DNA of 33,749 nt from a virus: the IMG/VR virus record IMGVR_UViG_3300029708_000027, positions 1-33,749 of that record; one strand, 5' to 3'. The notes under the pieces were generated by a model that was not told where the DNA came from, made no database searches, and saw only the letters and a list, made by a program, of their open reading frames with translations. The number at the start of each line of letters is the position of its first letter. The stretch's first letter is position 1. Below are positions 4,438 through 33,749 of this stretch, piece by piece. The position numbers and the translations under genes are program-made.

Positions 4438-4680
4438 TTACTTCATTAATTTTGTTTTATAGAACACACAAATGCTTTTGAAATCCTGCTCATCCGATAC
4501 GTACCCCAGTGTTTTACGCGAAAGAAAATTAACGTCTCGGGTAATATCGCGTTGCAACTGGTCTAGAATTTCCTCGGTGTTACCGAACTTATCGTCGCGG
4601 ACATACAGCGCGCCGGACTTGATACCAAAGTACATACCCAAACGGTATTCAATTTCTTTTTTTAAACTTCTCTTTTTCAT
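4438..4680 (-). CDS. Hypothetical small protein
   Basis: 80-aa ORF. The ATG sits exactly 26 nt downstream of a TATCTTTG box. Confidence 0.65.
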   Translation of the reverse strand: MKKRSLKKEIEYRLGMYFGIKSGALYVRDDKFGNTEEILDQLQRDITRDVNFLSRKTLGYVSDEQDFKSICVFYKTKLMK

Positions 4681-4703
4681 GATTTCTGTTTTTTAATTTG
4701 ATG

Positions 4704-5045
4704 CTACAAAGATAACCCTTTTCCCGGTGCGTTGTTTATTTCCTTAACATTTCTTAAGAAGAAACTTATTGCAGCGTCCCTGCTTTCCAAATCATCGATA
4801 ACAAATACTTTGAAGCCTAAAGCCTCTAACTTGCTATGTACTAATAACTGTATCTTAGTTGGCTTCTTTCCTGTGGTCTTTATCTCGGCAAATCCTACAT
4901 ATCCACCCTGGCAAAGTATCATTCTATCCGGCAAACCTTTTACAAAGGTGGATAATAACTTTATTACCCACACTTTTTTTGTTCGGTTAAGCTTCTCGGA
5001 GAATGTGCGCTCTAAATCTTTTTCACTTATTATTTCCTTTGACAT
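4704..5045 (-). CDS. VRR-NUC domain nuclease
   Basis: GLPDRMILCQGGYVGFAEIKTTGKKPTKIQ matches the VRR-NUC core (PD...E.K...Q). Confidence 0.85.
   Translation of the reverse strand: MSKEIISEKDLERTFSEKLNRTKKVWVIKLLSTFVKGLPDRMILCQGGYVGFAEIKTTGKKPTKIQLLVHSKLEALGFKVFVIDDLESRDAAISFFLRNVKEINNAPGKGLSL
4707..4734 (-). promoter_or_regulatory. Bacteroidota-type promoter (class II-like) embedded in the 3' end of the VRR-NUC gene, for 4438..4680
   Basis: Minus strand reads AACAACGCACCGGGAAAAGGGT-TATCTTTG-N26-ATG. It is homologous to the 1965..2006 cassette (GGGAAAAGCGT-TATATTTG). Confidence 0.5.
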
Positions 5046-5935: not shown

Positions 5936-6139
5936 TTAATTGTTTTCTAAGTTAATACACTCCGTTAGTTCTTGCATGCTCGTTTCTGTCAGTTGACGCG
6001 TGTAAGTCTGTCCCAGCATACCGATAAATGGTTTGCCGTCCACGTACATGATACGCGATACGTGTTCAACGTTGATATACTCTACTTGCAATTCACCCTT
6101 AACTACGAATGTCAGTTCAATAAAATTTCCACTTTTCAT
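5936..6139 (-). CDS. Hypothetical small protein
   Basis: 67-aa ORF preceded by the conserved leader CAATTTAAAAACGAAAGATT-ATG. Confidence 0.6.
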   Translation of the reverse strand: MKSGNFIELTFVVKGELQVEYINVEHVSRIMYVDGKPFIGMLGQTYTRQLTETSMQELTECINLENN

Positions 6140-6319: not shown

Positions 6320-6357
6320 AATCTTTTGTTTTTAAATTTCTGATATATACTATAAAC

Positions 6358-6387
6358 GTTTGCGGTTTTAAAAGGTTCACCGCAAAC
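6358..6387 (-). promoter_or_regulatory. GAACC-hairpin cassette, copy 1 (conserved CGGTGAACCTTT)
   Basis: Arms GTTTGCGGT (6358..6366) and ACCGCAAAC (6379..6387) form 9 bp around the 12-nt loop TTTAAAAGGTTC. The hairpin lies 8 nt after the stop of 6396..6671 and is followed on the minus strand by GTTTATAGTAT. Confidence 0.5.
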
Positions 6388-6395
6388 CTATATTT

Positions 6396-6671
6396 TTATT
6401 CTAAAACGGTTACAACATCATTTAAATTCACAAACCAGTATGTTTTGGCCTCCCTCATTACTATGTCCGTATCACACAGGGCACTCCCTGACCAGCCCAG
6501 GCTCTTGCCGTCTATAATAACGTCGCGCGTGTTATTATAGTTAAACCCTATTACTTCTACTATTGAGAACCTATCAAATACTGGTTTGGCTACGCGTTGT
6601 TCTTGCTCTTCTTTTGGTAGGGCACGCAATTTAACTAATACCTTTTTTCCTACTAATTCTTCTTGTCTCAT
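6396..6671 (-). CDS. Hypothetical small protein (VVG...IVD...GW..SAL family)
   Basis: 91-aa ORF. VEVIGFNYNNTRDVIIDGKSLGWSGSALCDTDI...NLNDV aligns with 1660..1938. Confidence 0.7.
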   Translation of the reverse strand: MRQEELVGKKVLVKLRALPKEEQEQRVAKPVFDRFSIVEVIGFNYNNTRDVIIDGKSLGWSGSALCDTDIVMREAKTYWFVNLNDVVTVLE

Positions 6672-6706: not shown

Positions 6707-6734
6707 AACGGATGCTTTGTAAAGGTTCACCGTT
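6707..6734 (-). promoter_or_regulatory. GAACC-hairpin cassette, copy 2 (weaker stem)
   Basis: AAAGGTTCACCG at 6721..6732. Arms AACGG/CCGTT form 5 bp around an 18-nt loop. The hairpin lies 16 nt after the stop of 6751..6924 and is followed on the minus strand by GTTTTTATAGTAT. Confidence 0.35.
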
Positions 6735-6750
6735 ATTGCCTTATTAACTT

Positions 6751-6924
6751 TTATTTTGCTTCGTAGCCCTTGCCTGGCACGTAATGTACAAGGCCCTCCA
6801 TTTGGAGATATGCTATTTGTTTAGCTGCTTCGTTGTATTCGGTCTGTAGGTTCAGCGCATAAATAATATCGTTAAAACTAATAATACCGCTTTCTCTGAT
6901 AAGGTTTAAAATTGAAGTTCTCAT
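6751..6924 (-). CDS. Putative winged-helix DNA-binding protein, 57 aa (below the ORF-track cutoff)
   Basis: My translation: MRTSILNLIRESGIISFNDIIYALNLQTEYNEAAKQIAYLQMEGLVHYVPGKGYEAK. The pattern fits helix-turn-helix plus wing (L..L...G..S..DI...L......A...I..L..EGLV). It has a class I promoter and the conserved leader. Confidence 0.5.
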   Translation of the reverse strand: MRTSILNLIRESGIISFNDIIYALNLQTEYNEAAKQIAYLQMEGLVHYVPGKGYEAK

Positions 6925-6951
6925 AATCTTAAGTTTTTAAATTATTATTAT

Positions 6952-6997
6952 TTCCTTTTGACATTACAAATATACGGCAAATAATGATAGGTTGTAT
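6952..6997 (-). promoter_or_regulatory. Bacteroidota-type promoter, class I cassette, for 6751..6924 and downstream genes
   Basis: Minus strand reads ATACAACCTATCATTATTTGCCG-TATATTTG-TAATGTCAAAAGGAA, with the box at 6967..6974. It is 42/46 identical to 16660..16705. Confidence 0.6.
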
Positions 6998-7063
6998 ATT
7001 TCATTAACACCATTTAAGAAATAAATCTCATTTAGTTATTCTGTTAACTGTTAGTTAACATTT

Positions 7064-7089: not shown

Positions 7090-9528
7090 TCACTCGTTAA
7101 CAATACGCTCAAACCCTCGTGCGCGTCCGATACCCATAACGGACTTGGCTTTTGCTGAACGCTGCCACCCTTGTACCTTAGACATGATAGCGGCTATTTC
7201 ACGACTCTCCTTTGCGGTTACGCGCCCTACCTCCATTTCGAACACATCTGTAGCGATTTGCATGGTAGACACGAAGTCCATCTTTTCCAGTGTAAAATCT
7301 TCCGGGTCTACCTTTGTCGCGTCGTATTCCCTAAAGTACATGCGTCGTTCGTTTACGTACATCCGCCTCCAATCTGTTGGCACAAGCATATTCAAATACT
7401 CCTCTACTGATGCAGTACGGGGGTCGGCTTCGTAATGTTCTTCACGCCCTTCCTCGGCAATCGCCTCGGCTTCACGGGATAACAGCGTACTCACTTTTCG
7501 GAAATACATTTGGACTGCCTCGGCCCAAAGCTGGTCTACATAATCGTCGAACCCCTTCTCAAAGATAAGGTGCGTATTGGCGTTCGCCTTAACCTTCACG
7601 GGCAAAAAGCGTCTGCCGCCCGTATCGTCCTTTAGAAATTCGTCCCGGTTGGTCGTACCTATAAAGACGCATTGCCGGGGGAAGTTCTTGGTAACGCGTC
7701 CGTATGCCGGTCTAAAGCTATCCTCTGTTTTAGAGATGAAATTTTTCACGCCCTCAACTTCTGAACGTCTCATCGCTGACAACTCGGCTACCTCCAATAT
7801 CCAATTACCTTGCAACTGTTCAAACGCGTCCTTACCGTCCATACTTGAAAGGCTATCGGAGAACCATTGCTTACCCAGCTTTTGGATGAATGTGCTCTTT
7901 CCTGCGCCCTGCTCGGACTGTAGAACTAACATGCTATCGAATTTGCACCCCTTTTGAAAGATACGCTTAACAGCTCCTACCATCATGATACGGAATGCCT
8001 CACGGGTGTATATGTTATCTTCTGCACCCATGATGTGAATTAAAGCCTTATCAACTCTTTCGATACTGTCCCATTTCAATTTTGTTAGGTATTCCTGCAC
8101 TGGGTGGAAAGAATTCATTTCTGCGGATAACGCTATAGCATCGTCAATCTTTGCCCTATTCGATATGCCATAAATATCCTCGATGTGTTTACGTACGCCC
8201 GAATAGTCCACATCCTGGAAGTCCAAAGAAGTATCTTTCGCGCGCCAAAGAGGTATGCGTGTAACAACCCGGCGTTCTTTGAATAGGTCTCGCGCGATAA
8301 GCCCCTTTAGGTTCGGGTCGTACTTCATTATCAGCCCTAAATTCTTTGCTGATGGTAGGTAAGTGCCGCGCTTATCGGTTTCGAGCTTTGCCATCGCGTC
8401 CTCATACGTTGTTGCTACATCTGTGTACGTCGCTTCCTCTACTTCTATAACGTCATCGAAGTCTTCCATAATCTCCCTGGCCTTAACTGCCAGCATCCGG
8501 GCACGTGCCGCGGCTACCTTTGCGTCCTTGTTTACCAGTTCGTTCATAGCCTCGGTAGAGTTCTTCCTATCCGCGCCCTTATCCAATTTGCCGAACTTGT
8601 GCACGCGTACAAGGTCGTAGGCGTTGAACACGTGGTTACCTTGGATAGGGTCGTTGTTGTGGAATGAATAGGCAAACGTATCATTAAAGGTAAGCATACC
8701 GCCCGAAGTAGAGCCACCCGTATAAGTCCATCTATCATCCTGCTCGGTAGGCTCGTAAACGTCTGATAGGTATTCCGCGATAACCTCGCTAATCGTGTAG
8801 GCTCTACAGAAGTCACCTACGATACCCTCCTTCAATGTGGGGTCTTGTTGTTCTTTAGCAAGCGTCCGGGCTTCGCCCTTCTCGTCCTTGTGGTATGCCC
8901 ATTCGGTAGTATCGCTCCAATCGTCGTACATGCCCAAATACTTCTGCACGTCCAAAGGGTTTTCATTAAATGCAGAGTAATCTATAAACTCATACTCTAC
9001 GTCTTTGGAAACCGACGGGAAAAACATGCAGCGCTCGGGCTGAAAGGTGGTGCGGTCGTACAAGTCGATACCCGTCAACTCGGCAACCTTTCGGGCGATG
9101 GCTTCGTATTGTTCCCCGTCCACTGGTTCGGACAACGGAATGATAACACGGTAACGGAGCGTGTTCGCTTTCGGGTTGTGCTTGTGCGTCCCGTGAATGA
9201 TACACGCGCAATTAATAACCGAGTAGAACGCTTCCGGGAAGTTCTTTTCCCCGTAGTCAATATCAAGCGCCAAAATAGAGCGTTCCCCGATATTGTTTTT
9301 GTTTCTACGGCTACCGAACAACTCACCCCCCATGAATGCGCCTACGTCTTTAATATTACCCTGCTCGGCTTTGCTCGCGCTTATAAACTCCCGGTACGTC
9401 TCATCCGTAACGGTTGCCTTCGCTAACTTCTCGGTCAACTCGTCCCATGAGTAGGAGCGGTTTTTCCATGAAGTAGATTTCGCGCTGCTTGCTGTAGCAA
9501 TTTTAAAAACCATTTTTCGTAAATCCAT
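7090..9528 (-). CDS. Bifunctional primase-polymerase (AEP-like N-terminus) / D5-VirE family helicase
   Basis: 812 aa. The N-terminus carries LALDIDYG (DxD) and IIHGTHKH. The C-terminus carries Walker A SEQGAGKSTF, Walker B-like WILEVAEL and FIGTTN. Located directly downstream of the polymerase gene. Confidence 0.85.
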   Translation of the reverse strand: MDLRKMVFKIATASSAKSTSWKNRSYSWDELTEKLAKATVTDETYREFISASKAEQGNIKDVGAFMGGELFGSRRNKNNIGERSILALDIDYGEKNFPEAFYSVINCACIIHGTHKHNPKANTLRYRVIIPLSEPVDGEQYEAIARKVAELTGIDLYDRTTFQPERCMFFPSVSKDVEYEFIDYSAFNENPLDVQKYLGMYDDWSDTTEWAYHKDEKGEARTLAKEQQDPTLKEGIVGDFCRAYTISEVIAEYLSDVYEPTEQDDRWTYTGGSTSGGMLTFNDTFAYSFHNNDPIQGNHVFNAYDLVRVHKFGKLDKGADRKNSTEAMNELVNKDAKVAAARARMLAVKAREIMEDFDDVIEVEEATYTDVATTYEDAMAKLETDKRGTYLPSAKNLGLIMKYDPNLKGLIARDLFKERRVVTRIPLWRAKDTSLDFQDVDYSGVRKHIEDIYGISNRAKIDDAIALSAEMNSFHPVQEYLTKLKWDSIERVDKALIHIMGAEDNIYTREAFRIMMVGAVKRIFQKGCKFDSMLVLQSEQGAGKSTFIQKLGKQWFSDSLSSMDGKDAFEQLQGNWILEVAELSAMRRSEVEGVKNFISKTEDSFRPAYGRVTKNFPRQCVFIGTTNRDEFLKDDTGGRRFLPVKVKANANTHLIFEKGFDDYVDQLWAEAVQMYFRKVSTLLSREAEAIAEEGREEHYEADPRTASVEEYLNMLVPTDWRRMYVNERRMYFREYDATKVDPEDFTLEKMDFVSTMQIATDVFEMEVGRVTAKESREIAAIMSKVQGWQRSAKAKSVMGIGRARGFERIVNE

Positions 9529-13470: not shown

Positions 13471-13779
13471 TTAACCTTGTTTAACTTTAAAAGTTTTTGG
13501 TGCTATTGAAATAGCATAATCTAAATCTTTTTGGTCTGCCCACCGTACGGTATACCTCTGTTCATCTTTGTAGTATGCACCAGAGCTATACCGGTCTAGC
13601 TTTCTAATAGCTTTAATCTCGTCCATGCTGAATTCCTTTAGAGCTACTAAAAGTTTTTGCATGTCTGTGGAGGTTCTTTCAAGTTCTTTTTTAGTCCATG
13701 TGCGGAATTGATTTTTGTTCCGAAACTTTGTTCTTTCTTGAATCCCTTTCTCTGTTAGAATACCATTGTTACTTTTCAT
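13471..13779 (-). CDS. Hypothetical protein
   Basis: 102-aa basic ORF. The ATG sits exactly 26 nt downstream of a TATATTTG box. Confidence 0.65.
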   Translation of the reverse strand: MKSNNGILTEKGIQERTKFRNKNQFRTWTKKELERTSTDMQKLLVALKEFSMDEIKAIRKLDRYSSGAYYKDEQRYTVRWADQKDLDYAISIAPKTFKVKQG

Positions 13780-13805
13780 ATCGTTTTGTTTTTAAATTGA
13801 TAGTG

Positions 13806-13847
13806 CAAATATAACGCTTTATCTGGTGGGTTGGTTCTTTCGTTAAC
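13806..13847 (-). promoter_or_regulatory. Bacteroidota-type promoter, class II cassette, for 13471..13779
   Basis: Minus strand reads GTTAACGAAAGAACCAAC-N19-TATATTTG-N26-ATG, with the box at 13806..13813 and GTTAAC at 13842..13847. Confidence 0.6.
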
Positions 13848-13852
13848 TTCTT

Positions 13853-15031
13853 TTATGAATTTAATTCCTCGAAGTCATCTATAGTTGGTCTTAATTCTTC
13901 CCTCTTATCGCTTTCGGGGACTAAAGTTGGCAGCCCTTGCGACTTGACTATCAGCCCGTCAAGTGTTGCGGCGAGCGGTTTCTTACCAACCAGGCGTTCG
14001 AGGTCTCCGATACCTTTCAACTTTCTGTTAGTTACGTCCTCGGTAGATAACCCGATGGCCTTTAGGCGTTCTATGGCTGTTTCCGTGTCGTTTATGACAC
14101 GTACCGAGCGACCCTTTACAAGCTTCCACCCCTTGACCTTTTCGCCCCGTGTGGCGGCTTGCATCGCGAATGTCTTAACCGATGCCAGCCAGTCGGTGAA
14201 CATATCGGACTCGCTTAATATATCGCCTATCTCGTCAAGCGTTAATGCCTTGGTGTCCCTGTAGGTCTCGAACTCGTTAACTAAAGCATCTTTCTGTGCC
14301 CTGCATTGTGCTTTGAACTTGCAGAACTTACAATGACTTCCTACTTTTGTTTCCCCTTGTCCTGCCCATGCCTTTTCAGCCGTCGGGCGAAGTACGTGTA
14401 TAGCCCAGTGGGTCAAGTCCCGTGCGGACATCTCGAATACCGAGTAATTGCCTAACCGTACTTGTGCGATGTGCATGCGTACCGTTTCAATCTTGGAACG
14501 GTGCACTGGCTCTAAGGAGTTAAGAACTCCAATAGCGTACATCATCAATTGGCTGTTTTTGTTTGCATCTACTTGTACTCCCTTACCGTATTTTAAATCT
14601 ATGATGTTTAGGACCGTATCGCCTACTATGTCACAGTCACAGCTACCGAAACACTCGGGAACGTATGTGGTTAGGTCGAACTTCCGTTCTATACTCATTT
14701 TAGCACCTTCCTCCAGTTCGTATATGTCACACACGTAGCAAACGTAATCTGTTACGTAGTGTTCCATTTCTGAACTATAATATTTGTTGTTACGTATCTC
14801 ATCGGGTACGGGCAATTCGTCCAATAACGGTAGGTATTCCCCGGCTAAATACTTTTCTATCGCGTGCTCTGCCAACTCGTGCGCTACCGTTCCCTCTTCC
14901 GATGCTGCGCTACTCGTGCTCTCATACGGTTCTTCCAACCGTGCAGACGGTGTGCAGTTAAGCCATCTATGCGAGCTGCTCGGAGAAAGTAGGGCGTGTG
15001 CCCTACTTGTGTGGTCTACTTGTACTTTCAT
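13853..15031 (-). CDS. DUF2800-type PD-(D/E)XK nuclease (Cas4/RecB-like, with a C-terminal Cys cluster)
   Basis: N-terminus HALLSPSSSHRWLNCTPS, nuclease core IIDLKYGKG, and cysteine cluster CKFCKFKAQC. Confidence 0.8.
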   Translation of the reverse strand: MKVQVDHTSRAHALLSPSSSHRWLNCTPSARLEEPYESTSSAASEEGTVAHELAEHAIEKYLAGEYLPLLDELPVPDEIRNNKYYSSEMEHYVTDYVCYVCDIYELEEGAKMSIERKFDLTTYVPECFGSCDCDIVGDTVLNIIDLKYGKGVQVDANKNSQLMMYAIGVLNSLEPVHRSKIETVRMHIAQVRLGNYSVFEMSARDLTHWAIHVLRPTAEKAWAGQGETKVGSHCKFCKFKAQCRAQKDALVNEFETYRDTKALTLDEIGDILSESDMFTDWLASVKTFAMQAATRGEKVKGWKLVKGRSVRVINDTETAIERLKAIGLSTEDVTNRKLKGIGDLERLVGKKPLAATLDGLIVKSQGLPTLVPESDKREELRPTIDDFEELNS

Positions 15032-15908: not shown

Positions 15909-15960
15909 TTGCCTGCAAATACTTTTTTACTTCGTCGATAATAAACTTTTGCTCTTTCAT
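15766..15960 (-). CDS. Upstream frame of a split small gene
   Basis: The ATG at 15960 sits exactly 26 nt downstream of a TATATTTG box. The N-terminus MKEQKFIIDEVKKYLQASARKNKYQVIDAVQEMPTFEGF looks protein-like, while the last ~25 aa look out of frame. Confidence 0.55.
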   Translation of the reverse strand: MKEQKFIIDEVKKYLQASARKNKYQVIDAVQEMPTFEGFILPLLRLYNGRDKIPGKRRGDVYLL

Positions 15961-15986
15961 AACTTTATCTTTTTAAATTGTTGATG

Positions 15987-16028
15987 CAAATATAACGCTT
16001 TTGCAAATACGTTGGTTCACTTGTTAAC
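15987..16028 (-). promoter_or_regulatory. Bacteroidota-type promoter, class II cassette, for 15766..15960
   Basis: Minus strand reads GTTAACAAGTGAACCAAC-N19-TATATTTG-N26-ATG, with the box at 15987..15994 and GTTAAC at 16023..16028. Confidence 0.6.
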
Positions 16029-16241
16029 CTTATTTAAGAAAATAGCTTCCATAAGGTTCTGCATGTGCCCGTATACCATACCGTTGTATTGGTATGCCTC
16101 AAATCTCCCGTTATGGCGTACCTCTGAAAAAGTATCGCTATACTCGTTGCCCGCCTCGTCTATAAATACTAATACGTGGCTCTTCATCTCGAACTGACCG
16201 GCGGTCAGCGTTTCTCTAAAAATTAAATCAATTGCTTTCAT
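16017..16241 (-). CDS. Hypothetical small protein
   Basis: 74-aa ORF preceded by GAACC-hairpin cassette copy 3. Confidence 0.6.
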   Translation of the reverse strand: MKAIDLIFRETLTAGQFEMKSHVLVFIDEAGNEYSDTFSEVRHNGRFEAYQYNGMVYGHMQNLMEAIFLNKVNK

Positions 16242-16278
16242 AATTTTACTCTTTAATCGGTTTATAATAGATAAACAA

Positions 16279-16304
16279 TAGCGGTTTTAAAAGGTTCACC
16301 GCTA
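16279..16304 (-). promoter_or_regulatory. GAACC-hairpin cassette, copy 3
   Basis: Arms TAGCGGT (16279..16285) and ACCGCTA (16298..16304) around the loop TTTAAAAGGTTC, which is identical to copy 1. The hairpin lies 10 nt after the stop of 16315..16587. Confidence 0.5.
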
Positions 16305-16314
16305 ACCTACTTTT

Positions 16315-16587
16315 TTATCCGAATCTTTTAAAGTCATTGACATAAACCAAATAATCTTTCTCGTAGAACTTCCATCCGCCATACAATCTGTCAAGATAAT
16401 TTTTAATCATCCTCATACAAGCGGCTTTCATATAGTTCTTTTTCTTGTTTCTTTCGAGAAAGGCGTTCAATTCTTCGTAATTGTAACCGTCTTCTTCATT
16501 AAACAACTTTGAATCATCGTTGCTAAAATTTCTGATTTCGTTTATCTTCTCGTAAATGCTGTTCTTAAGTTCTTCAAGTGATTTCAT
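16315..16587 (-). CDS. Hypothetical small protein (first gene of the early arc)
   Basis: 90-aa ORF and the first ORF downstream of the class I promoter at 16660..16705. The 87-nt leader contains the small hairpin GGAAAC/GTTTCC (16648..16663). Confidence 0.65.
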   Translation of the reverse strand: MKSLEELKNSIYEKINEIRNFSNDDSKLFNEEDGYNYEELNAFLERNKKKNYMKAACMRMIKNYLDRLYGGWKFYEKDYLVYVNDFKRFG

Positions 16588-16659
16588 AACTTTATCTTTT
16601 TAATCGTTTATTTCCAATTTAATGTCTTGGTGACCTCCTGCCATCCGGGAAACCCTTGT

Positions 16660-16705
16660 TTCCTTTTGACATTGCAAATATACGGCAAATATCAATAGGT
16701 TGTAT
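16660..16705 (-). promoter_or_regulatory. Bacteroidota-type promoter, class I cassette, opening the early arc
   Basis: Minus strand reads ATACAACCTATTGATATTTGCCG-TATATTTG-CAATGTCAAAAGGAA, with the box at 16675..16682. It is 42/46 identical to 6952..6997. Confidence 0.6.
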
Positions 16706-16796
16706 CTCTTTTTGTGCTAATAAACCTTAATCAAAAGTGAAAAGATGTAAAGAAGTAGCCGGTGTAAGCTAAAGTGCTGATTTCCAATGGCATAGA

Positions 16797-17030
16797 CTGC
16801 ACTGCACAGAAACACACCTAAATTCCTAAACTTTAATATAGGATATAGTGGTTTATACAGCTCGTTCTATAGTGGTAAATGCTATTTTCTCCAGGATAAT
16901 GTTTTACCCCCTTTTTACTGTGCATACTGTGCATTTACATATAATGTATTATAATATAGAGAGTTAGAGTGCACAAAAAACTGCACAGTAGCGATTTTTT
17001 ACTGTGCATCTGTGTCTAAAGAATGTTAAC
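16797..17030. repeat. Junction module, copy A (noncoding, homologous to 33311..33534)
   Basis: Alignable by eye along its whole length with copy B in the same orientation. Carries five TGCACAGTA-type sites, a hairpin, TTGTGC-17-TATAAT on the minus strand, and a conserved CCACTATATCCTATATTAAAGTTTA block. Confidence 0.85.
16982..17008 (-). terminator. Conserved hairpin plus T-run inside module A
   Basis: TGCACAGTA (16982..16990) and TACTGTGCA (17000..17008) form 9 bp around a 9-nt loop. On the minus strand the hairpin is followed by GTTTTTTG. Confidence 0.4.
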
Positions 17031-17033
17031 GAA

Positions 17034-17063
17034 AAATGGAGAACTGTTAACAGCCCTCCATTT
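17034..17063 (-). terminator. Stem-loop terminator closing the morphogenesis/lysis arc
   Basis: AAATGGAG (17034..17041) and CTCCATTT (17056..17063), with an inner CTG-TTAA-CAG mini-stem. It lies 5 nt after the stop at 17069 and is followed on the minus strand by TTCGTT (run CATTTTTCGTT). Confidence 0.55.
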
Positions 17064-17068
17064 CCTAA

Positions 17069-17647
17069 TTATTTTAGCTTTACCGCTATGTCTATATCTA
17101 TCTTTGATTTGGGGTTTTTGTTTGATATGTCGTGCTCTATAGCCTTGACCCCCCATCTGAAAAACAAGAATCTTTTCTTCCGGACTGTGATAACACCCGT
17201 TATCGTGTCCTTGCCTTGGTAGCTTAATTCCGTGCTATCCCGTTTAACCCGTGCTTGTATTGTATTCCATGCGTCCCGGTATTCGGCTATAAGCTCCCCG
17301 GCTACTGTATCGGTACGCACAACCTCCTTTATTACGGTCTTGGTAACGGTACGGGTTGCGGAAAGCGCGTCTTTCACCCGGACGTTAAGCGCATCCACCT
17401 CTTTATATAGTTCCGCGTTCATTTTCTTTAGCTCCTTGTGCGTCATCTCTAAGGCTTTACGCTTCACCGCCGCATCCCCGAGCTTTGTTTTGTACTCTAT
17501 CTGCACATCGTTCATCGCCTCAACGTTACGTTCTAAACGTCCTATTTCGGCTCTTTGCTTCCTTATGGTGTCTACCATTTTGGTGAACGCACCAAACAGC
17601 ACCATAAGGACTGCAAAGCCTATAATTATCTTTTGTAGTTTATTCAT
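17069..17647 (-). CDS. Membrane-anchored coiled-coil protein (spanin-like lysis accessory candidate)
   Basis: N-terminal helix IIIGFAVLMVLFGAF followed by a long charged coiled-coil region. It is the last gene of the lysis cluster. The start MNKLQK at 17647 gives an 8-nt overlap with the endolysin gene (the track start is 17659). Confidence 0.5.
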   Translation of the reverse strand: MNKLQKIIIGFAVLMVLFGAFTKMVDTIRKQRAEIGRLERNVEAMNDVQIEYKTKLGDAAVKRKALEMTHKELKKMNAELYKEVDALNVRVKDALSATRTVTKTVIKEVVRTDTVAGELIAEYRDAWNTIQARVKRDSTELSYQGKDTITGVITVRKKRFLFFRWGVKAIEHDISNKNPKSKIDIDIAVKLK

Positions 17648-18155
17648 AGCGTATCGCATTAATACGGTTCATCCAACCTTTACGGTATTTCTCGTTTTTG
17701 GGTCTCGCCTTGCAAATCTCATCGATGAACTTTGCCCTATCGTCTTTAATCATTTTAAAGAGCGTAGCCGCGTCCATAGCGTTAACGGCTGCAATGGTCT
17801 GCTTACCTACGATACCGTCCGCCTTGACACCCAAAAGACGCTGCGGGCGCTTTATACCGTGCGAGCCAGAAGCCCAAACCCAATCAACTAAGATATTTGC
17901 TATTGCTTGGCTTTTAATCTCGTCGGCTTTCCACCTATCCCAGTACAGAGACTTGAAAACGTCGTGCCATTCGGCATCGGATATGTTTTTCAAGTCTTCA
18001 ACGGTAGGGGCTTTTTGCCCCTTCCGCTTCTTGTATTCGGTGTATGTGCCTATAGTGATACCTTTGTTTGTTGCGCCCCCCAGGTCATCGGGGTCATTAA
18101 CAAAACCGCCCTCCCACTGTAGGATGAACGGTATTAATTTACTGCTGTTTGCCAT
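17640..18155 (-). CDS. Endolysin: GH108 lysozyme domain plus PG_binding_3-like C-terminus
   Basis: ILQWEGGFVNDPDDLGGATNKGIT is the GH108 signature (EGG...D..D.GG.T..GI). The C-terminus carries KYRKGWMNRI. Confidence 0.85.
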   Translation of the reverse strand: MANSSKLIPFILQWEGGFVNDPDDLGGATNKGITIGTYTEYKKRKGQKAPTVEDLKNISDAEWHDVFKSLYWDRWKADEIKSQAIANILVDWVWASGSHGIKRPQRLLGVKADGIVGKQTIAAVNAMDAATLFKMIKDDRAKFIDEICKARPKNEKYRKGWMNRINAIRYE

Positions 18156-18654
18156 CTTCTTTCTCCTTTTCTTCTAAGGGTATATCGAATTCGCCATCCT
18201 TAATTTTTTTCTTAAGTTGGAAATACTTGATATTCGCTATGCTGTTAAGCACCTTCACGAATTCATTTCCCGGCTGTACTACCCGTAGGTTTCTTGTTAT
18301 GCTACGCGCGTATATAATAAGGAATATACCCGTGAGCGCCTTAACTAAAAGCTGATAATCTATTCCCGGCTCTAACATATTGCAAGTAAGGGCCACAAAG
18401 AAAAGAATCACATTGGTTAGGAACAACTCCTTAACCGCCTGCATGGTCTTTTTATGCTTGTAGGGCTTTCCTTTTGCCCGGTCTGCCAAATAACCTACCA
18501 ACCAGTTCAACGCGGTAACTATGACCACTAAAAATATAAAATCCCGTATATCCGTAACTACTGCCAGAACGGTAACAGCAAAAAACGTGCGGAAATAGGT
18601 CTCTAGTTGTTCTATCACTTGATTAACCCTATACGGGTATTCAATACTATACAT
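18139..18654 (-). CDS. Putative holin (multi-pass membrane protein)
   Basis: 171 aa with about four hydrophobic helices (FFAVTVLAVV, FIFLVVIVTALNWLVGYL, LFLTNVILFFVALT, LTGIFLIIYA). Charged C-terminus. Lies immediately upstream of the endolysin gene and overlaps it. Confidence 0.55.
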   Translation of the reverse strand: MYSIEYPYRVNQVIEQLETYFRTFFAVTVLAVVTDIRDFIFLVVIVTALNWLVGYLADRAKGKPYKHKKTMQAVKELFLTNVILFFVALTCNMLEPGIDYQLLVKALTGIFLIIYARSITRNLRVVQPGNEFVKVLNSIANIKYFQLKKKIKDGEFDIPLEEKEKEDGKQQ

Positions 18655-33049: not shown

Positions 33050-33172
33050 ATTTTTGTTATTTGGTAATAAGGTATCGCGCGTGTGCGCTCGCGGTCTCTT
33101 AAAGAGATGCACAAGTAGTATTCGGACTATCCCGGTATTGGCGCGGCAATACGTATCGTTTCAATCATGGCA

Positions 33173-33180
33173 CAAAGGTA
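33173..33180 (-). promoter_or_regulatory. Bacteroidota-type -7 box (TACCTTTG) opening the morphogenesis arc
   Basis: Minus strand reads GTTGGTTGGTCTGATGCGATTTGTTGCC-TACCTTTG. The leader to the terS ATG is 123 nt and contains GC-rich CGCGAGCGCACACGCGCG. Confidence 0.5.
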
Positions 33181-33310
33181 GGCAACAAATCGCATCAGAC
33201 CAACCAACGGGCAGTTATGCCTTTTTCTACAAATAAAGTTTACAAATGAATTATATTTACACGCTGGAACACGCGAACACAGTAACTACCTATCTTTCTG
33301 TTAGTTGCAG

Positions 33311-33534
33311 GCACATGTACAGACACACACCTGTTTTCGTAAACTTTAATATAGAATATAGTGGTTTTTATACCCCTCAAAATACACTTTTCTCCAAAAT
33401 AATGTTATACCCCTCTTTTTACTGTACATCTGTACATATACATATAATATATTATAATAGAGAGAGTTAGAGTGCACAAAAACATGTACAGTAGCGATTT
33501 TTTTACTGTACATGTGTACCTAAAATATGTTAAT
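33311..33534. repeat. Junction module, copy B (noncoding, homologous to 16797..17030)
   Basis: Same layout as copy A, but all five motif sites read TGTACAGTA. Conserved CCACTATATTCTATATTAAAGTTTA block and TTGTGC-17-TATAAT on the minus strand. Confidence 0.85.
33482..33515 (-). terminator. Conserved hairpin plus T-run inside module B
   Basis: ACATGTACAGTA (33482..33493) and TACTGTACATGT (33504..33515) form 12 bp around a 10-nt loop. On the minus strand the hairpin is followed by TTTTTG. Confidence 0.45.
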
Positions 33535-33567
33535 TTTAGAGCCCCTTTTTTCTGAATATAAACAAAA

Positions 33568-33601
33568 GCCCAAATCTGACATTTTGTAATCAGATTTGGG
33601 C
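33568..33601 (-). terminator. Rho-independent terminator closing the early arc
   Basis: GCCCAAATCTGA (33568..33579) and TCAGATTTGGGC (33590..33601) form a perfect 12-bp stem with a 10-nt loop. On the minus strand it is followed by TTTTGTTTAT. It lies 82 nt after the stop at 34, counted across the circular junction. Confidence 0.75.
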
Positions 33602-33650
33602 TAATCGCTATCATTTGGTTTGCCTATAGGCTTTCGTAGAGGGCACTATC

Positions 33651-33749
33651 ATACTGCTAACACCTATAGGCAAACCGCTTTCATTATGTCAATTTCCACC
33701 CGAGCGAATCCTTATACCAATACCACGTTTGAACCGTTCCATTCTTGAA
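33651..33749. repeat. Terminal direct repeat, copy 2 (identical to 1..99)
   Basis: Exact 99-bp duplicate of the left end. It contains a redundant copy of the 3' end of CDS 34..444. Confidence 0.9.

Follow-up and report, generated by a model that had tools for sequence, protein, structure and literature searches.

What is the role of a noncoding block of about 230 bp that occurs twice in this circular phage genome, once at each junction between its gene blocks? The genome is that of a gut Bacteroides phage. The window (the whole stretch of 33,749 nucleotides analysed here) contains a 33,650-bp unit that forms a circular contig, with positions 1–99 identical to positions 33651–33749. The original prediction held that 16797–17030 and 33311–33534 are copies of one dedicated element that controls how transcription, or replication, crosses the operon boundaries. 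Formal pairwise alignment bore out the duplication. On the minus strand, 17029–16799 and 33533–33311 are 80.3% identical over 234 nt in the same orientation (blastn, E = 1.6e-53), and a MAFFT alignment of the two copies (modules A and B) agrees with the blastn result. All of the internal blocks that had been listed were found in both copies by alignment. The two noncoding stretches that hold the modules are indeed the largest gaps between minus-strand ORFs (16588–17068, and 33113–33650 plus 1–33), and the copies divide the circle into near-equal arcs of 16,514 and 17,136 bp. The TAnnTTTG boxes expected to open the next gene blocks are present, 115 bp (A) and 131 bp (B) from the modules. The single indel of 15–20 bp that had been proposed is in fact a main indel of 10 bp plus an 8-bp indel near the distal end. 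Terminators had been placed at the end of both gene blocks; the one at 33602–33567 (minus strand) was called by a terminator scan, while 17034–17063 was not, though it has a palindrome and a T-run. The signals flanking the modules are:

16675–16682, minus strand: TAnnTTTG box (TATATTTG as reverse complement), early promoter downstream of module A; read from the sequence.
33173–33180, minus strand: TAnnTTTG box (TACCTTTG as reverse complement), upstream of the small terminase gene; read from the sequence.
17034–17063, minus strand: hairpin and T-run closing the late operon, a 20-nt palindrome then a T-run; outside the duplicated unit.
33567–33602, minus strand: intrinsic terminator of the early operon, a 14-bp stem then a T-run, called by the scan; outside the duplicated unit.

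The box at 16675–16682 belongs to a 50-bp element that is repeated in front of the primase-helicase gene, and the hairpin at 17034–17063 is kept in all A copies.

Several blocks that had been listed as different elements (a hairpin with a T-run, a –35 box, 9-mers and CTGTRCA) turned out to be copies of one 7–8-nt repeat, which reads TGCACAG in module A and TGTACAG in module B. TGYACAG occurs 12 times in the window, compared to 5.9 ± 2.2 times in dinucleotide shuffles, and 10 of the 12 copies lie inside the two modules of ~235 bp, in both orientations. Each module contains 8–9 such iteron sites of 7–8 bp. Sites 2 and 2' in one orientation are followed by a 35-bp AT-rich spacer and then by sites 3 and 4 in the opposite orientation. 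These two pairs face inwards; another inverted pair lies upstream of them, and iterons cluster again ~115 bp downstream, at the distal end. The modules and their parts were mapped as follows:

16796–17015, minus strand: module A, a full iteron array that separates the late (structural and lysis) from the early (replication) block; 80% identical to module B.
17002–17015, minus strand: A sites 1 (TGCACAG, 17002–17008) and 0 (degenerate ACACAG, 17010–17015), outer arm of the inverted repeat.
16969–16988, minus strand: A sites 2 (16982–16988) and 2' (16969–16976), opposite-orientation iterons; site 2' was previously read as a "TTGTGC –35 box".
16934–16968, no strand assigned: A AT-rich spacer, which reads CTCTAACTC...TATTATAATACATTATATGTAAA in minus-strand sense; putative DNA-unwinding element.
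16918–16933, minus strand: A sites 3 (16927–16933) and 4 (16918–16924), tandem TGCACAG, previously the "9-mers".
16819–16917, no strand assigned: A conserved non-iteron segment, with AAAAAGGGGGTAAAACATTAT, ACCACTATA twice and ATATTAAAGTTTAG.
16796–16818, minus strand: A distal iteron cluster (site 5), GGTGTGTTTCTGTGCAGTGCAGT, 2–3 overlapping iterons in the orientation of sites 2 and 2'.
33311–33519, minus strand: module B, a full iteron array with the last early gene on one side and the small terminase gene on the other; from alignment with A.
33506–33519, minus strand: B sites 1 (TGTACAG, 33506–33512) and 0 (33514–33519); alignment and repeat mapping.
33472–33491, minus strand: B sites 2 (33485–33491) and 2' (33472–33479); alignment and repeat mapping.
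33437–33471, no strand assigned: B AT-rich spacer; from alignment with A.
33422–33436, minus strand: B sites 3 and 4, TGTACAG in tandem, repeating every 8 nt.
33311–33331, minus strand: B distal iteron cluster, GGTGTGTGTCTGTACATGTGCC; alignment and repeat mapping.

The "–35 box" at site 2' of module A reads CTGGTCAC in phages of the TGACCAG type and is therefore an iteron. Site 5 also follows the repeat type (e.g., GGTGTCCATCTGGGCTGGTCAG in TGACCAG phages), and the period of sites 3 and 4 is 8 or 9 nt in relatives. The spacer is 79% A+T on average, and two iterons border it on either side, those on one side pointing opposite to those on the other. Its sequence occurs in two or more AT-rich alternatives among relatives, and its TAACT start is retained even in clades at 72–75% VirE identity. 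The non-iteron blocks are nearly invariant and common to A and B in close relatives, and blocks of the GG(G)TATAAC and AAGTnTAG types are still recognisable in diverged clades. Cumulative GC and AT skews across the genome are monotonic and carry no origin signal, with the location of all genes on one strand as a confounder.

Both modules are kept in ~90 related Bacteroidales phage genomes and contigs wherever both positions are covered, down to ARB25, and the pair persists at initiator identities of 57% (BM127P1) and 42% (ARB25). Relatives with one copy or none would speak against a paired element; the pair is syntenic in every genome or contig that spans both positions. An ortholog of module A lies directly after the last late gene in six GenBank genomes (L001–L006) and ~50 IMG/VR loci, and a syntenic copy of module B is present in every relative whose contig spans that position. 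Orthologous copies are 82–94% alike, compared to 71–80% for A and B within one genome, and each of them has conserved flanks of its own; A and B have thus been kept distinct for a long time. In all clades examined, neither copy has lost any element: the AT-rich spacer and every iteron group are present in both. In a more distant clade (L123–125 and L133; 63% initiator identity), the first junction has a large palindrome with CTATAA-type repeats instead. The arc between the modules makes up 44–51% of the circle in the genomes measured. These results support the prediction of a dedicated, conserved and duplicated cis-element. The GenBank record of BU2-2 ends inside module A, which reflects a 141-bp assembly overlap and not a physical end; the genomes of EMB1 and EMB2 are circularly permuted. 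The two blocks, being 80% identical, can mark assembly breakpoints, and they risk being misread as terminators or promoters. We found no paper in the searchable literature that describes the origins of these Bacteroidales phages, ARB25 included.

At least ten iteron variants are used by different lineages, and all sites within a genome change in concert across relatives. Close relatives have TGCACAG, TGACCAG, GACACAG or TTACACAG, and other clades have TGGCACAG, TGGAACAC, TTGTAACA, TGTCACA, GTTCCGACA, CTGTTCCA or GGATAGAT. The A and B modules of one genome are almost always of the same type. Among genomes in which both modules were seen, a mismatch was found only in the window and a few mixed genomes.

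The best candidate for a protein that reads these iterons is a primase-helicase:

7090–9528, minus strand: primase-helicase, VirE/VapE-like, 812 aa, proposed initiator for both modules; Pfam, PHROG and PDB matches.
7090–7437, minus strand: last 115 aa of the primase-helicase, its C-terminal domain; putative winged-helix domain for iteron binding.
7144–7152, minus strand: codons for K793-A794-K795, located at the beta-hairpin (wing) tip and proposed to determine specificity; top covariation columns, position from the model.

The protein has a Pfam VapE-like domain (PF05272) at residues 481–699 (E = 8e-81), matches the PHROG 256 helicase over its full length and the PHROG 9765 primase at its N-terminus, and matches SaPI1 Rep1 (7pds_A) over residues 394–731 (phmmer, E = 1e-78). 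Full-length relatives were found in 380 phage records, including 105 from Bacteroides, 87 from Staphylococcus and 38 from Streptococcus phages. An AlphaFold2 model of the C-terminal domain had a pLDDT of 92.3 and a pTM of 0.85; a first model built from 14 near-identical fragments (pLDDT 40.6) was discarded, and a profile search of that 14-sequence alignment against PDB sequences returned only noise (e.g., triosephosphate isomerase). The only significant PDB matches to the C-terminal model in Foldseek were chains A–F of 7pds, SaPI1 Rep1 (E = 2e-5 to 1e-4, TM 0.76–0.84, probability 1.00, 18–20% identity). The gene ends 7.4 and 9.7 kb from the modules, and genome-wide repeat mapping found no iteron cluster next to position 7090.

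Association with iteron type was scored for 4,025 variable protein columns from 29 ORF families in 47 loci. The columns ranked 1, 2 and 4 all fall in the last 25 residues of the primase-helicase (maximum association 0.73 for the wing), where the kinship of the genomes is accounted for solely by ranking against all other protein columns. In the C-terminal model, the variable residues lie at the tip of the hairpin, between strands 91–93 and 98–100. The wing reads NGK in 26 of 32 TGCACAG genomes, with KAK or KAR in five of the others and GAK in one, and so the covariation is not one-to-one. It reads GRR or GRK in all four TGACCAG genomes, NAK or NAR in all three GACACAG genomes, and DAK, EAK or EAR in all eight TTACACAG genomes. 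Diverged clades pair RSRQR with TGGCACAG, (A/S)TRR with TTGTAACA and (G/S)VRR with TGTCACA, giving at least ten wing/iteron pairs across clades. TGTACAG sites occur only in genomes with xAK wings (the window, L003, L072, L082 and L093) and in none of the 26 NGK genomes; this explains how TGCACAG (in A) and TGTACAG (in B) can coexist in the window. Between the wing codons and either module lie 7–10 kb with mosaic genes. This comparative evidence suggests that the specificity of the initiator is matched to its own iterons.

Other candidates for a covarying partner were set aside. The high-scoring ORFs at 33405–33614 and 17016–17156 overlap the modules themselves, a hypervariable small-protein family (6396–6671 and 1660–1938) is a mixture of paralogs, some high-scoring families have only 10–13 members, and HNH-AP2 homing endonucleases are absent from the window. 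Among the families tested, no small DNA-binding protein family tracked the repeat type. The small DNA-binding candidate of the original prediction (6751–6924) is present in a minority of the relatives examined and was for that reason left out of the families tested for association. No genes were confined to phages of one iteron type at 70–90% identity, and whole-protein identity to the proteins of the window did not track iteron type; the column-wise analysis alone did.

We conclude that each module is probably an iteron-type replication origin, or at least an origin-type initiator-binding array. The basis for this is the repeats, their architecture, the conservation of the pair, the homology and fold of the protein, and the protein-DNA covariation; from these we infer binding and melting, the firing of origins and why two copies exist. 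The primase-helicase, predicted to be an SF3 helicase that loads itself, of the VapE/SaPI-Rep type and fused to a primase, would recognise the iterons via the beta-hairpin wing of its C-terminal winged-helix domain and assemble head-to-head on either side of the AT-rich spacer. It would then melt the spacer and prime DNA synthesis. One protein would read both modules, half a genome apart, and at least one of them, plausibly both, would fire as an origin. As judged from sequence conservation, the presence of every element in both copies across clades argues that both need the complete origin anatomy. Points that weigh against the origin reading are the skew curves without an origin signal, the distance of both modules from the initiator gene, the ~100 bp of conserved non-iteron sequence in each module and the imperfect match between wing and iteron type.

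The competing reading with the best claim, possible though clearly less favoured, is that the modules are not equivalent, with one firing as the origin and the other serving as a cis partner bound by the same initiator: a looping enhancer like crr of P4, a roadblock like oriR of SPP1 that stalls the fork and brings about the switch to concatemers, or a handcuffing site that limits initiation. SPP1 provides a precedent, as it has two similarly built origins and one binding protein and uses only oriL for theta replication (PMC6316719, PMC3485210). The greater likeness of orthologs than of A and B, each with its own conserved flanks, fits this reading, as does the fact that module B, in phages that package by headful (PMC9584325), lies immediately upstream of the packaging genes. 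However, every element is kept in both copies across the clades examined, and no sequence feature separates a firing from a non-firing copy. A more speculative version, which we regard as rather unlikely, is an obligate coupled pair in which one module fires and initiator at the other arrests or handcuffs the fork ~180 degrees away, beside the packaging genes, timing the switch from circle-to-circle replication to concatemers. If this were true, the near-equal arcs would be selected and not a by-product of gene order, and the wing/iteron pairs, at least ten in number, would be a readable recognition code in a widespread, uncharacterised family of phage initiators. Packaging sites for the small terminase would be another use for the repeats. 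Some pac sites, such as that of phage P1, are clusters of short repeats, and module B lies ~200 bp upstream of the small terminase gene, in phages whose relatives package by headful (PMC9584325). Such a role is scarcely credible given that module A is distant from the packaging genes (15 kb from terS) and that the maximum association of terS is 0.33 versus 0.73 for the primase-helicase wing.

Paired origins and an operator array were both among the candidate roles in the original prediction, and its headline of transcriptional control across operon boundaries found no support. As operators, the arrays would allow a regulator (the primase-helicase wing domain or another protein) to time read-through, termination or promoter firing at both junctions. 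Each array does sit between a terminator and the next TAnnTTTG promoter, repressor-operator systems, too, typically have arrays of sites that evolve along with a protein, and transcription could likewise be affected by a winged-helix initiator that binds at the operon junctions. Nevertheless, we consider this improbable because the arrays stop 115–131 bp upstream of the promoter boxes without overlapping them, the protein with the strongest covariation is a replication initiator, from a group in which the same site architecture serves homologues as an origin, and the other high scores come from paralog mixtures or ORFs that overlap the modules. Promoters of the host phylum have the form TAnnTTTG, and no such box was seen inside either module on reading the sequence. 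The terminator and sigma-70-like promoter proposed within the module did not hold up: among the 74 distinct module sequences used for the repeat and fold statistics, the hairpin is followed by a T-run in only 20 and TATAAT is present in 56. A structured RNA made from the module (an antitermination element, an attenuator with alternative pairings, or a small RNA) could draw on the complementarity of forward and reverse repeats, which change compensatorily, and on the T-run after the first inverted pair in the window. It is nonetheless very unlikely, as all forward sites are identical to each other whereas an RNA helix needs only complementarity, and the T-run is confined to a minority of modules. 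RNAalifold on the 74 modules gave 19 pairs, all of repeat against repeat (–12.3 kcal/mol, covariation –0.93), and joined site 1 to site 2' and not to site 2. Rfam searches yielded nothing at gathering thresholds, relaxed scans gave nothing beyond noise (models of miRNA, CsrB and an HAV pseudoknot, far below the cut-offs), and no tRNA or tmRNA was found.

Read as origins, the modules would give an abundant group of human-gut phages, which includes the tractable B. thetaiotaomicron phage ARB25, a concrete and testable origin. The specificity series may also offer orthogonal initiator/origin pairs for Bacteroides genetics, and it could predict cross-replication or interference between co-infecting phages.

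Among known systems, SV40 large T antigen and papillomavirus E1 are SF3 helicase-initiators that form a head-to-head double hexamer on inverted short repeats by an AT-rich element. They are an analogy of mechanism only, as they act at a single origin in a eukaryotic setting and their origin-binding domain differs in fold and position. The closest likeness is to staphylococcal SaPIs. The SaPI origin has 6–12 short iterons and a central AT-rich region with at least two oppositely oriented iterons on each side (PMC9371898), a layout that each module shows with its 8–9 sites and 35-bp spacer. The SaPI Rep and PriRep proteins (PMC9371898; 7PDS, 7OLA) share with the primase-helicase a homologous VapE-like SF3 helicase (E = 1e-78) and the fold of the C-terminal domain (TM 0.76–0.84, from a predicted model), PriRep5 of SaPI5 also has a fused primase, and in both systems initiator and iterons are matched lineage by lineage. 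Unlike the SaPIs, which are satellites, the window comes from a virulent-looking Bacteroidales siphophage. SaPIs have one origin copy immediately downstream of rep, whereas here there are two, half a circle apart and 7–10 kb from the initiator gene, and SaPI iterons are 5–6 nt long compared to 7–8 nt here. Each module further differs from the SaPI layout by one more inverted pair (upstream), a cluster of iterons at the distal end and ~100 bp of conserved sequence outside the iterons, the last without a known role in SaPI or P4 origins.

In P4, the alpha protein binds octamer iterons in ori and crr, both of which are needed for replication; crr is built differently from ori and lies ~4.5 kb away. 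The modules resemble these in being two separated cis regions with the same iteron (sites in A and B), but they are full homologous copies ~16.5 kb apart. P4 alpha combines a primase, an SF3 helicase and a DNA-binding C-terminal domain of the winged-helix type within one polypeptide (PMC2777425), and the same three domains are found in one protein here. Its primase is of the DnaG type and its helicase belongs to a different family, and no P4 alpha chain, including 1KA8, was among the significant sequence or fold matches of the primase-helicase. SPP1 has two origins per genome with similar repeats and an AT-rich unwinding element, an organisation that the two modules share. Only oriL takes part in its theta replication, and protein at oriR is proposed to bring the fork to a halt (PMC6316719, PMC3485210). 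Both SPP1 origins are bound by one protein, and covariation points to a single binding protein here; in addition, one SPP1 origin is in an intergenic segment of the late region, with transcription signals on either side (PMC6316719). In contrast, gp38 of SPP1 is unrelated and works with a separate loader and a DnaB-type helicase instead of a VapE-type primase-helicase, oriL lies inside the initiator gene, the origins are ~13 kb apart in a 44-kb genome, and the functional asymmetry is documented for SPP1. The modules are thus most likely a duplicated variant of a known origin type, and the occurrence of a SaPI/P4-type origin as a stably maintained, diametrically placed pair raises the question of why two copies are kept.

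The window is a circular contig with a unit of 33,650 bp (positions 33651-33749 repeat bases 1-99), and its minus strand carries all of the long ORFs. The original prediction had described a duplicated noncoding module at two operon junctions, and this observation is confirmed. The two blocks, modules A and B, align in the same orientation with 80.3% identity over 234 nt (blastn, E 1.6e-53; a MAFFT alignment was also made) and occupy the two largest gaps between genes. They lie 115 and 131 bp from the TAnnTTTG boxes and cut the circle into arcs of 16.5 and 17.1 kb, again as first given. A terminator scan called the proposed early-operon terminator; the proposed late-operon hairpin is indeed a palindrome followed by a T-run, but falls outside the rules of the scan.

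Features of the window
16796-17015, minus strand: module A
33311-33519, minus strand: module B
16819-16917 (A) and 33332-33421 (B): non-iteron segment, with blocks common to both copies
33602-33567, minus strand: early-operon terminator
17034-17063: late-operon hairpin
7090-9528, minus strand: primase-helicase gene (812 aa)
7144-7152: codons of the three variable wing residues

Thirteen isolated Bacteroides phages, including EMB1, EMB2, the BU series, BX788P2 and C2_18_80S2P, match the module region with 83-95% identity. A third matching place per record in this BLAST search is explained by a repeated 50-bp element (16656-16705 and 6948-6997, 90% identical). Its copies, each with a Bacteroidetes-type TAnnTTTG box, precede the first early gene and the primase-helicase gene, respectively, which suggests a pair of co-regulated early promoters. 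All six complete genomes examined have both modules in matching positions, one following the lysis block and the other preceding the small terminase gene. IMG/VR scans using the last late protein and the primase-helicase as queries yielded 129 further loci and, within the close group, both modules were present in every contig covering both positions, without counter-examples. Module orthologues are 82-94% identical between genomes, compared with 71-80% between the copies within one genome, indicating that the duplication is old and that both copies have been maintained. In a clade with an initiator identity of 63%, the first junction looks different. In one of its contigs (L133, IMG/VR contig 3300045988_077023) a ~200-bp palindrome with CTATAA/TTATAG repeats replaces the module at the post-lysis junction (2440-2900), and a ~310-bp unit is present in three tandem copies at 17574-18437; these regions may represent an origin of a different build.

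EMB2 has been called a headful packager and, like EMB1, is circularly permuted (PMC9584325), so the modules are not genome ends. The linear record of BU2-2 (L136/L137, PQ571282.1) starts and ends inside module A, but we rejected a physical terminus there because the ends form a 141-bp terminal redundancy, an assembly overlap left in the record. The BM127P1 record (OP172694.1) likewise has a terminal redundancy (341 bp at 97% identity). Homing endonuclease genes with HNH and AP2 domains, absent from the window, are inserted at varied positions in relatives (L003-L006, L067, L069, L071-L073, L075, L078, L080, L081 and others), with up to three per genome, adding to the mosaicism among phages that are otherwise 95% identical.

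Read in the transcription sense, one short motif recurs many times in both copies, as ATGCACAGT / ACTGTGCA in A and ATGTACAGT / ACTGTACA in B.

Order of elements in each module
1: degenerate site and site 1, forward
2: spacer, 12 nt
3: sites 2 and 2', reverse
4: AT-rich segment, 35 bp
5: sites 3 and 4, forward, tandem
6: conserved non-repeat sequence, ~100 bp
7: distal cluster of 2-3 overlapping reverse sites

The hairpin arms, "TTGTGC -35 box", tandem 9-mers and "CTGTRCA", originally listed as separate parts, are therefore all a single element. The genome has 12 copies of TGYACAG (5.9 +/- 2.2 in shuffles), 10 of them within the 1.4% of the sequence taken up by the two modules. The blocks of the non-iteron segment (AAAAAGRGGGTAWAACATTAT, ACCACTATA repeats (two in A) and ATATTAAAGTTTAG) are still recognisable in clades at 57-75% initiator identity, and could serve as host-factor sites, as a start site for the primase, or to bend the DNA so that the distal iterons reach the core.

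Iteron types, assigned by k-mer counts, differ between phages. Four versions (TGCACAG, TGACCAG, GACACAG and TTACACAG) were found in close relatives, whose primase-helicases are 93-96% identical. TGTACAG occurs too: in the window it fills copy B, and elsewhere it is mixed with TGCACAG. All sites of a module change in concert (the supposed -35 box reads CTGGTCAC in TGACCAG phages), and A and B of one genome have the same version, as seen for four versions. At both junctions, more distant clades retain the architecture but have unrelated motifs (the seven from TGGCACAG onwards in the list below). The forward sites are identical to one another, beyond mere complementarity to a partner, which points to a sequence-specific DNA-binding protein with diversified specificity rather than an RNA helix.

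Motif versions, primase-helicase wing residues and genomes
TGCACAG: wing NGK in 26 of 32 genomes
TGACCAG: wing GRR or GRK in 4 of 4
GACACAG: wing NAK or NAR in 3 of 3
TTACACAG: wing DAK, EAK or EAR in 8 of 8
TGGCACAG (diverged clade; L131, L112, L118, L109): wing RSRQR
TTGTAACA (diverged clade; L114, L116): wing (A/S)TRR
TGTCACA, TGTCACA(G) (diverged clade; L115, L121): wing (G/S)VRR
TGGAACAC: L104
GTTCCGACA: L127, L128
CTGTTCCA: Phocaeicola phage BM127P1 (A and B 78.7% identical over 287 bp)
GGATAGAT: B. thetaiotaomicron phage ARB25

To relate proteins to repeat type, ORFs were called in 47 loci of known type and grouped into families, and the normalised mutual information with repeat type was calculated for each alignment column. 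The ranking covered 4,025 variable columns from the 29 families that had 30 or more members and included every one of the four types; covariation here is the rank of a column against the remaining proteome, by a statistic that ignores phylogeny. The columns ranked 1st, 2nd and 4th belong to the last 25 residues of the primase-helicase, whose C-terminal stretch reads ...SKVQGWQR(S/A)A-xxx-..MGIGRxRGFERIVNE (xxx, variable residues). The relation is not strictly one-to-one: among the genomes assigned to TGCACAG, KAK or KAR occurs in five and GAK in one. Sites reading TGTACAG are confined to genomes with an xAK wing (the window, L003, L072, L082 and L093), with none in the 26 NGK genomes. The wing of the window is KAK, which accounts for its unusual difference between A and B, a single tolerated transition. 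Physical linkage is an unlikely cause of the covariation, as 7.4 and 9.7 kb separate the wing codons from the modules and the genes in between are mosaic. We rejected the other high scores as artefacts: they came from ORFs that overlap the modules, from families with 10-13 members, from mobile HNH-AP2 endonucleases, and from a hypervariable paralog family. This last family, of ~90-aa proteins (MEKYSKAVSEMYSQF... type; 6396-6671 and 1660-1938, with relatives in family fam33), has one or two paralogous copies per genome and a very variable central segment, and might be a host-interaction or anti-defence locus.

The primase-helicase contains a VapE-like Pfam domain (residues 481-699, E 8e-81), and PHROGs matches the whole protein to helicase and its N-terminal 430 residues to primase. 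Among solved structures, its best match is SaPI1 Rep1 (7PDS; E 1e-78, residues 394-731). An AlphaFold2 model of the last 115 residues, built from 36 diverse C-termini, had a pLDDT of 92.3 and a pTM of 0.85. The only significant PDB matches of this model were the six 7PDS chains (E 2e-5 to 1e-4, TM 0.76-0.84, 18-20% identity), followed by weak matches to winged-helix transcription factors. In the model, the three variable residues are predicted at the turn between strands 91-93 and 98-100, right behind the helix SREIAAIMSKV, where a winged helix has its wing.

What we observed is the architecture of the repeats, the maintenance of the pair, the homology and fold of the protein, and protein-DNA covariation; from these we infer binding, melting and firing, by one copy or both. 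On this comparative sequence evidence, on which all our functional statements rest, the modules are probably iteron-type origins, or at least origin-type initiator-binding arrays. The C-terminal wing of the primase-helicase would bind the iterons in both modules, and the protein would assemble flanking the AT-rich spacer on both sides, melt it, load itself and then prime synthesis. Retention of the complete anatomy in both copies in all clades slightly favours two real origins. Asymmetry between them is nevertheless conceivable, given A-specific and B-specific flanks that have been kept for a long time. The GC skew of the genome has no origin signal because a single strand bears all genes.

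The position of the arrays between terminators and promoters would suit operators for transcription control, but the promoter boxes lie outside them and the protein that covaries is an initiator of replication, making this role unlikely. That the module is a structured RNA element is highly improbable: it has no Rfam match, RNAalifold pairs only repeat with repeat at negligible covariation energy, and the T-run and TATAAT are present in 20 and 56 of 74 modules, respectively. We give equally little credence to a pac site, given that module A is remote from the packaging genes and that the small terminase has no association with repeat type (maximum 0.33).

The window contains several other repeats. 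A 40-90-bp family lies directly upstream of many start codons (1932-2023, 4674-4765, 6934-7025, 13773-13864 and 15954-16045, with shorter copies at 6134, 6314, 6666, 13402, 16582, 23189 and 30182). On the minus strand these resemble promoter and leader units (TTATATTTGCATCAACAATTTAAAAACAnnAGATTATG), so the early region appears to consist of numerous small transcription units in series. A hairpin element, GCGGTTTTAAAAGGTTCACCGC, with shared flanks in early intergenic sequence (6352-6404 and 16271-16323, 85% identical; also 6716-6735), could be a terminator or regulatory hairpin. A 23-nt inverted repeat (33617-33639 / 33654-33676 (= 4-26), 83% complementary, loop of 14 nt) closely follows the last early gene on its 3' side and precedes the early-operon terminator. 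Within ORF 1168-1653, 4.5 tandem copies of a 21-bp unit (1346-1450) encode a repetitive 7-residue protein segment. ORF 2154-2876 (240 aa) matches only the N-terminal half of PF00145 (C-5 cytosine DNA methylase; E 9e-37, profile positions 4-161 of 324) and has a close homologue in few relatives.

The kind of element proposed here is already known: in SaPI and P4, too, an SF3 primase-helicase reads an iteron origin through its winged-helix C-terminal domain. The P4 alpha primase-helicase binds both ori and crr. The domain layout of alpha is given in PMC2777425. The paper on the 7PDS structure (PMC9371898) describes SaPI Reps as self-loading helicases that initiate replication via a winged-helix domain, located C-terminally, recognising iterons of 5-6 nt; their origins have 6-12 iterons, at least two per side in opposite directions, with an AT-rich region in the middle, and in SaPI5 the primase is fused. 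The module core (sites 2 and 2', AT-rich spacer, sites 3 and 4) has exactly this layout. In SPP1, oriL and oriR are similarly organised and both bound by gp38, and oriR-bound gp38 has been proposed to stall the fork, causing a theta-to-sigma switch (PMC6316719, PMC3485210). SPP1 and P4 are thus precedents for a two-copy arrangement. Our literature search found no description of these Bacteroidales phage origins. In contrast to SaPI and P4, the system has two full copies half a genome apart, neither adjoining the initiator gene, with extra iteron groups and a conserved 100-bp non-iteron segment, in Bacteroidales gut siphophages (ARB25 included). Its natural series of wing variants matched to iteron variants is unusually rich.
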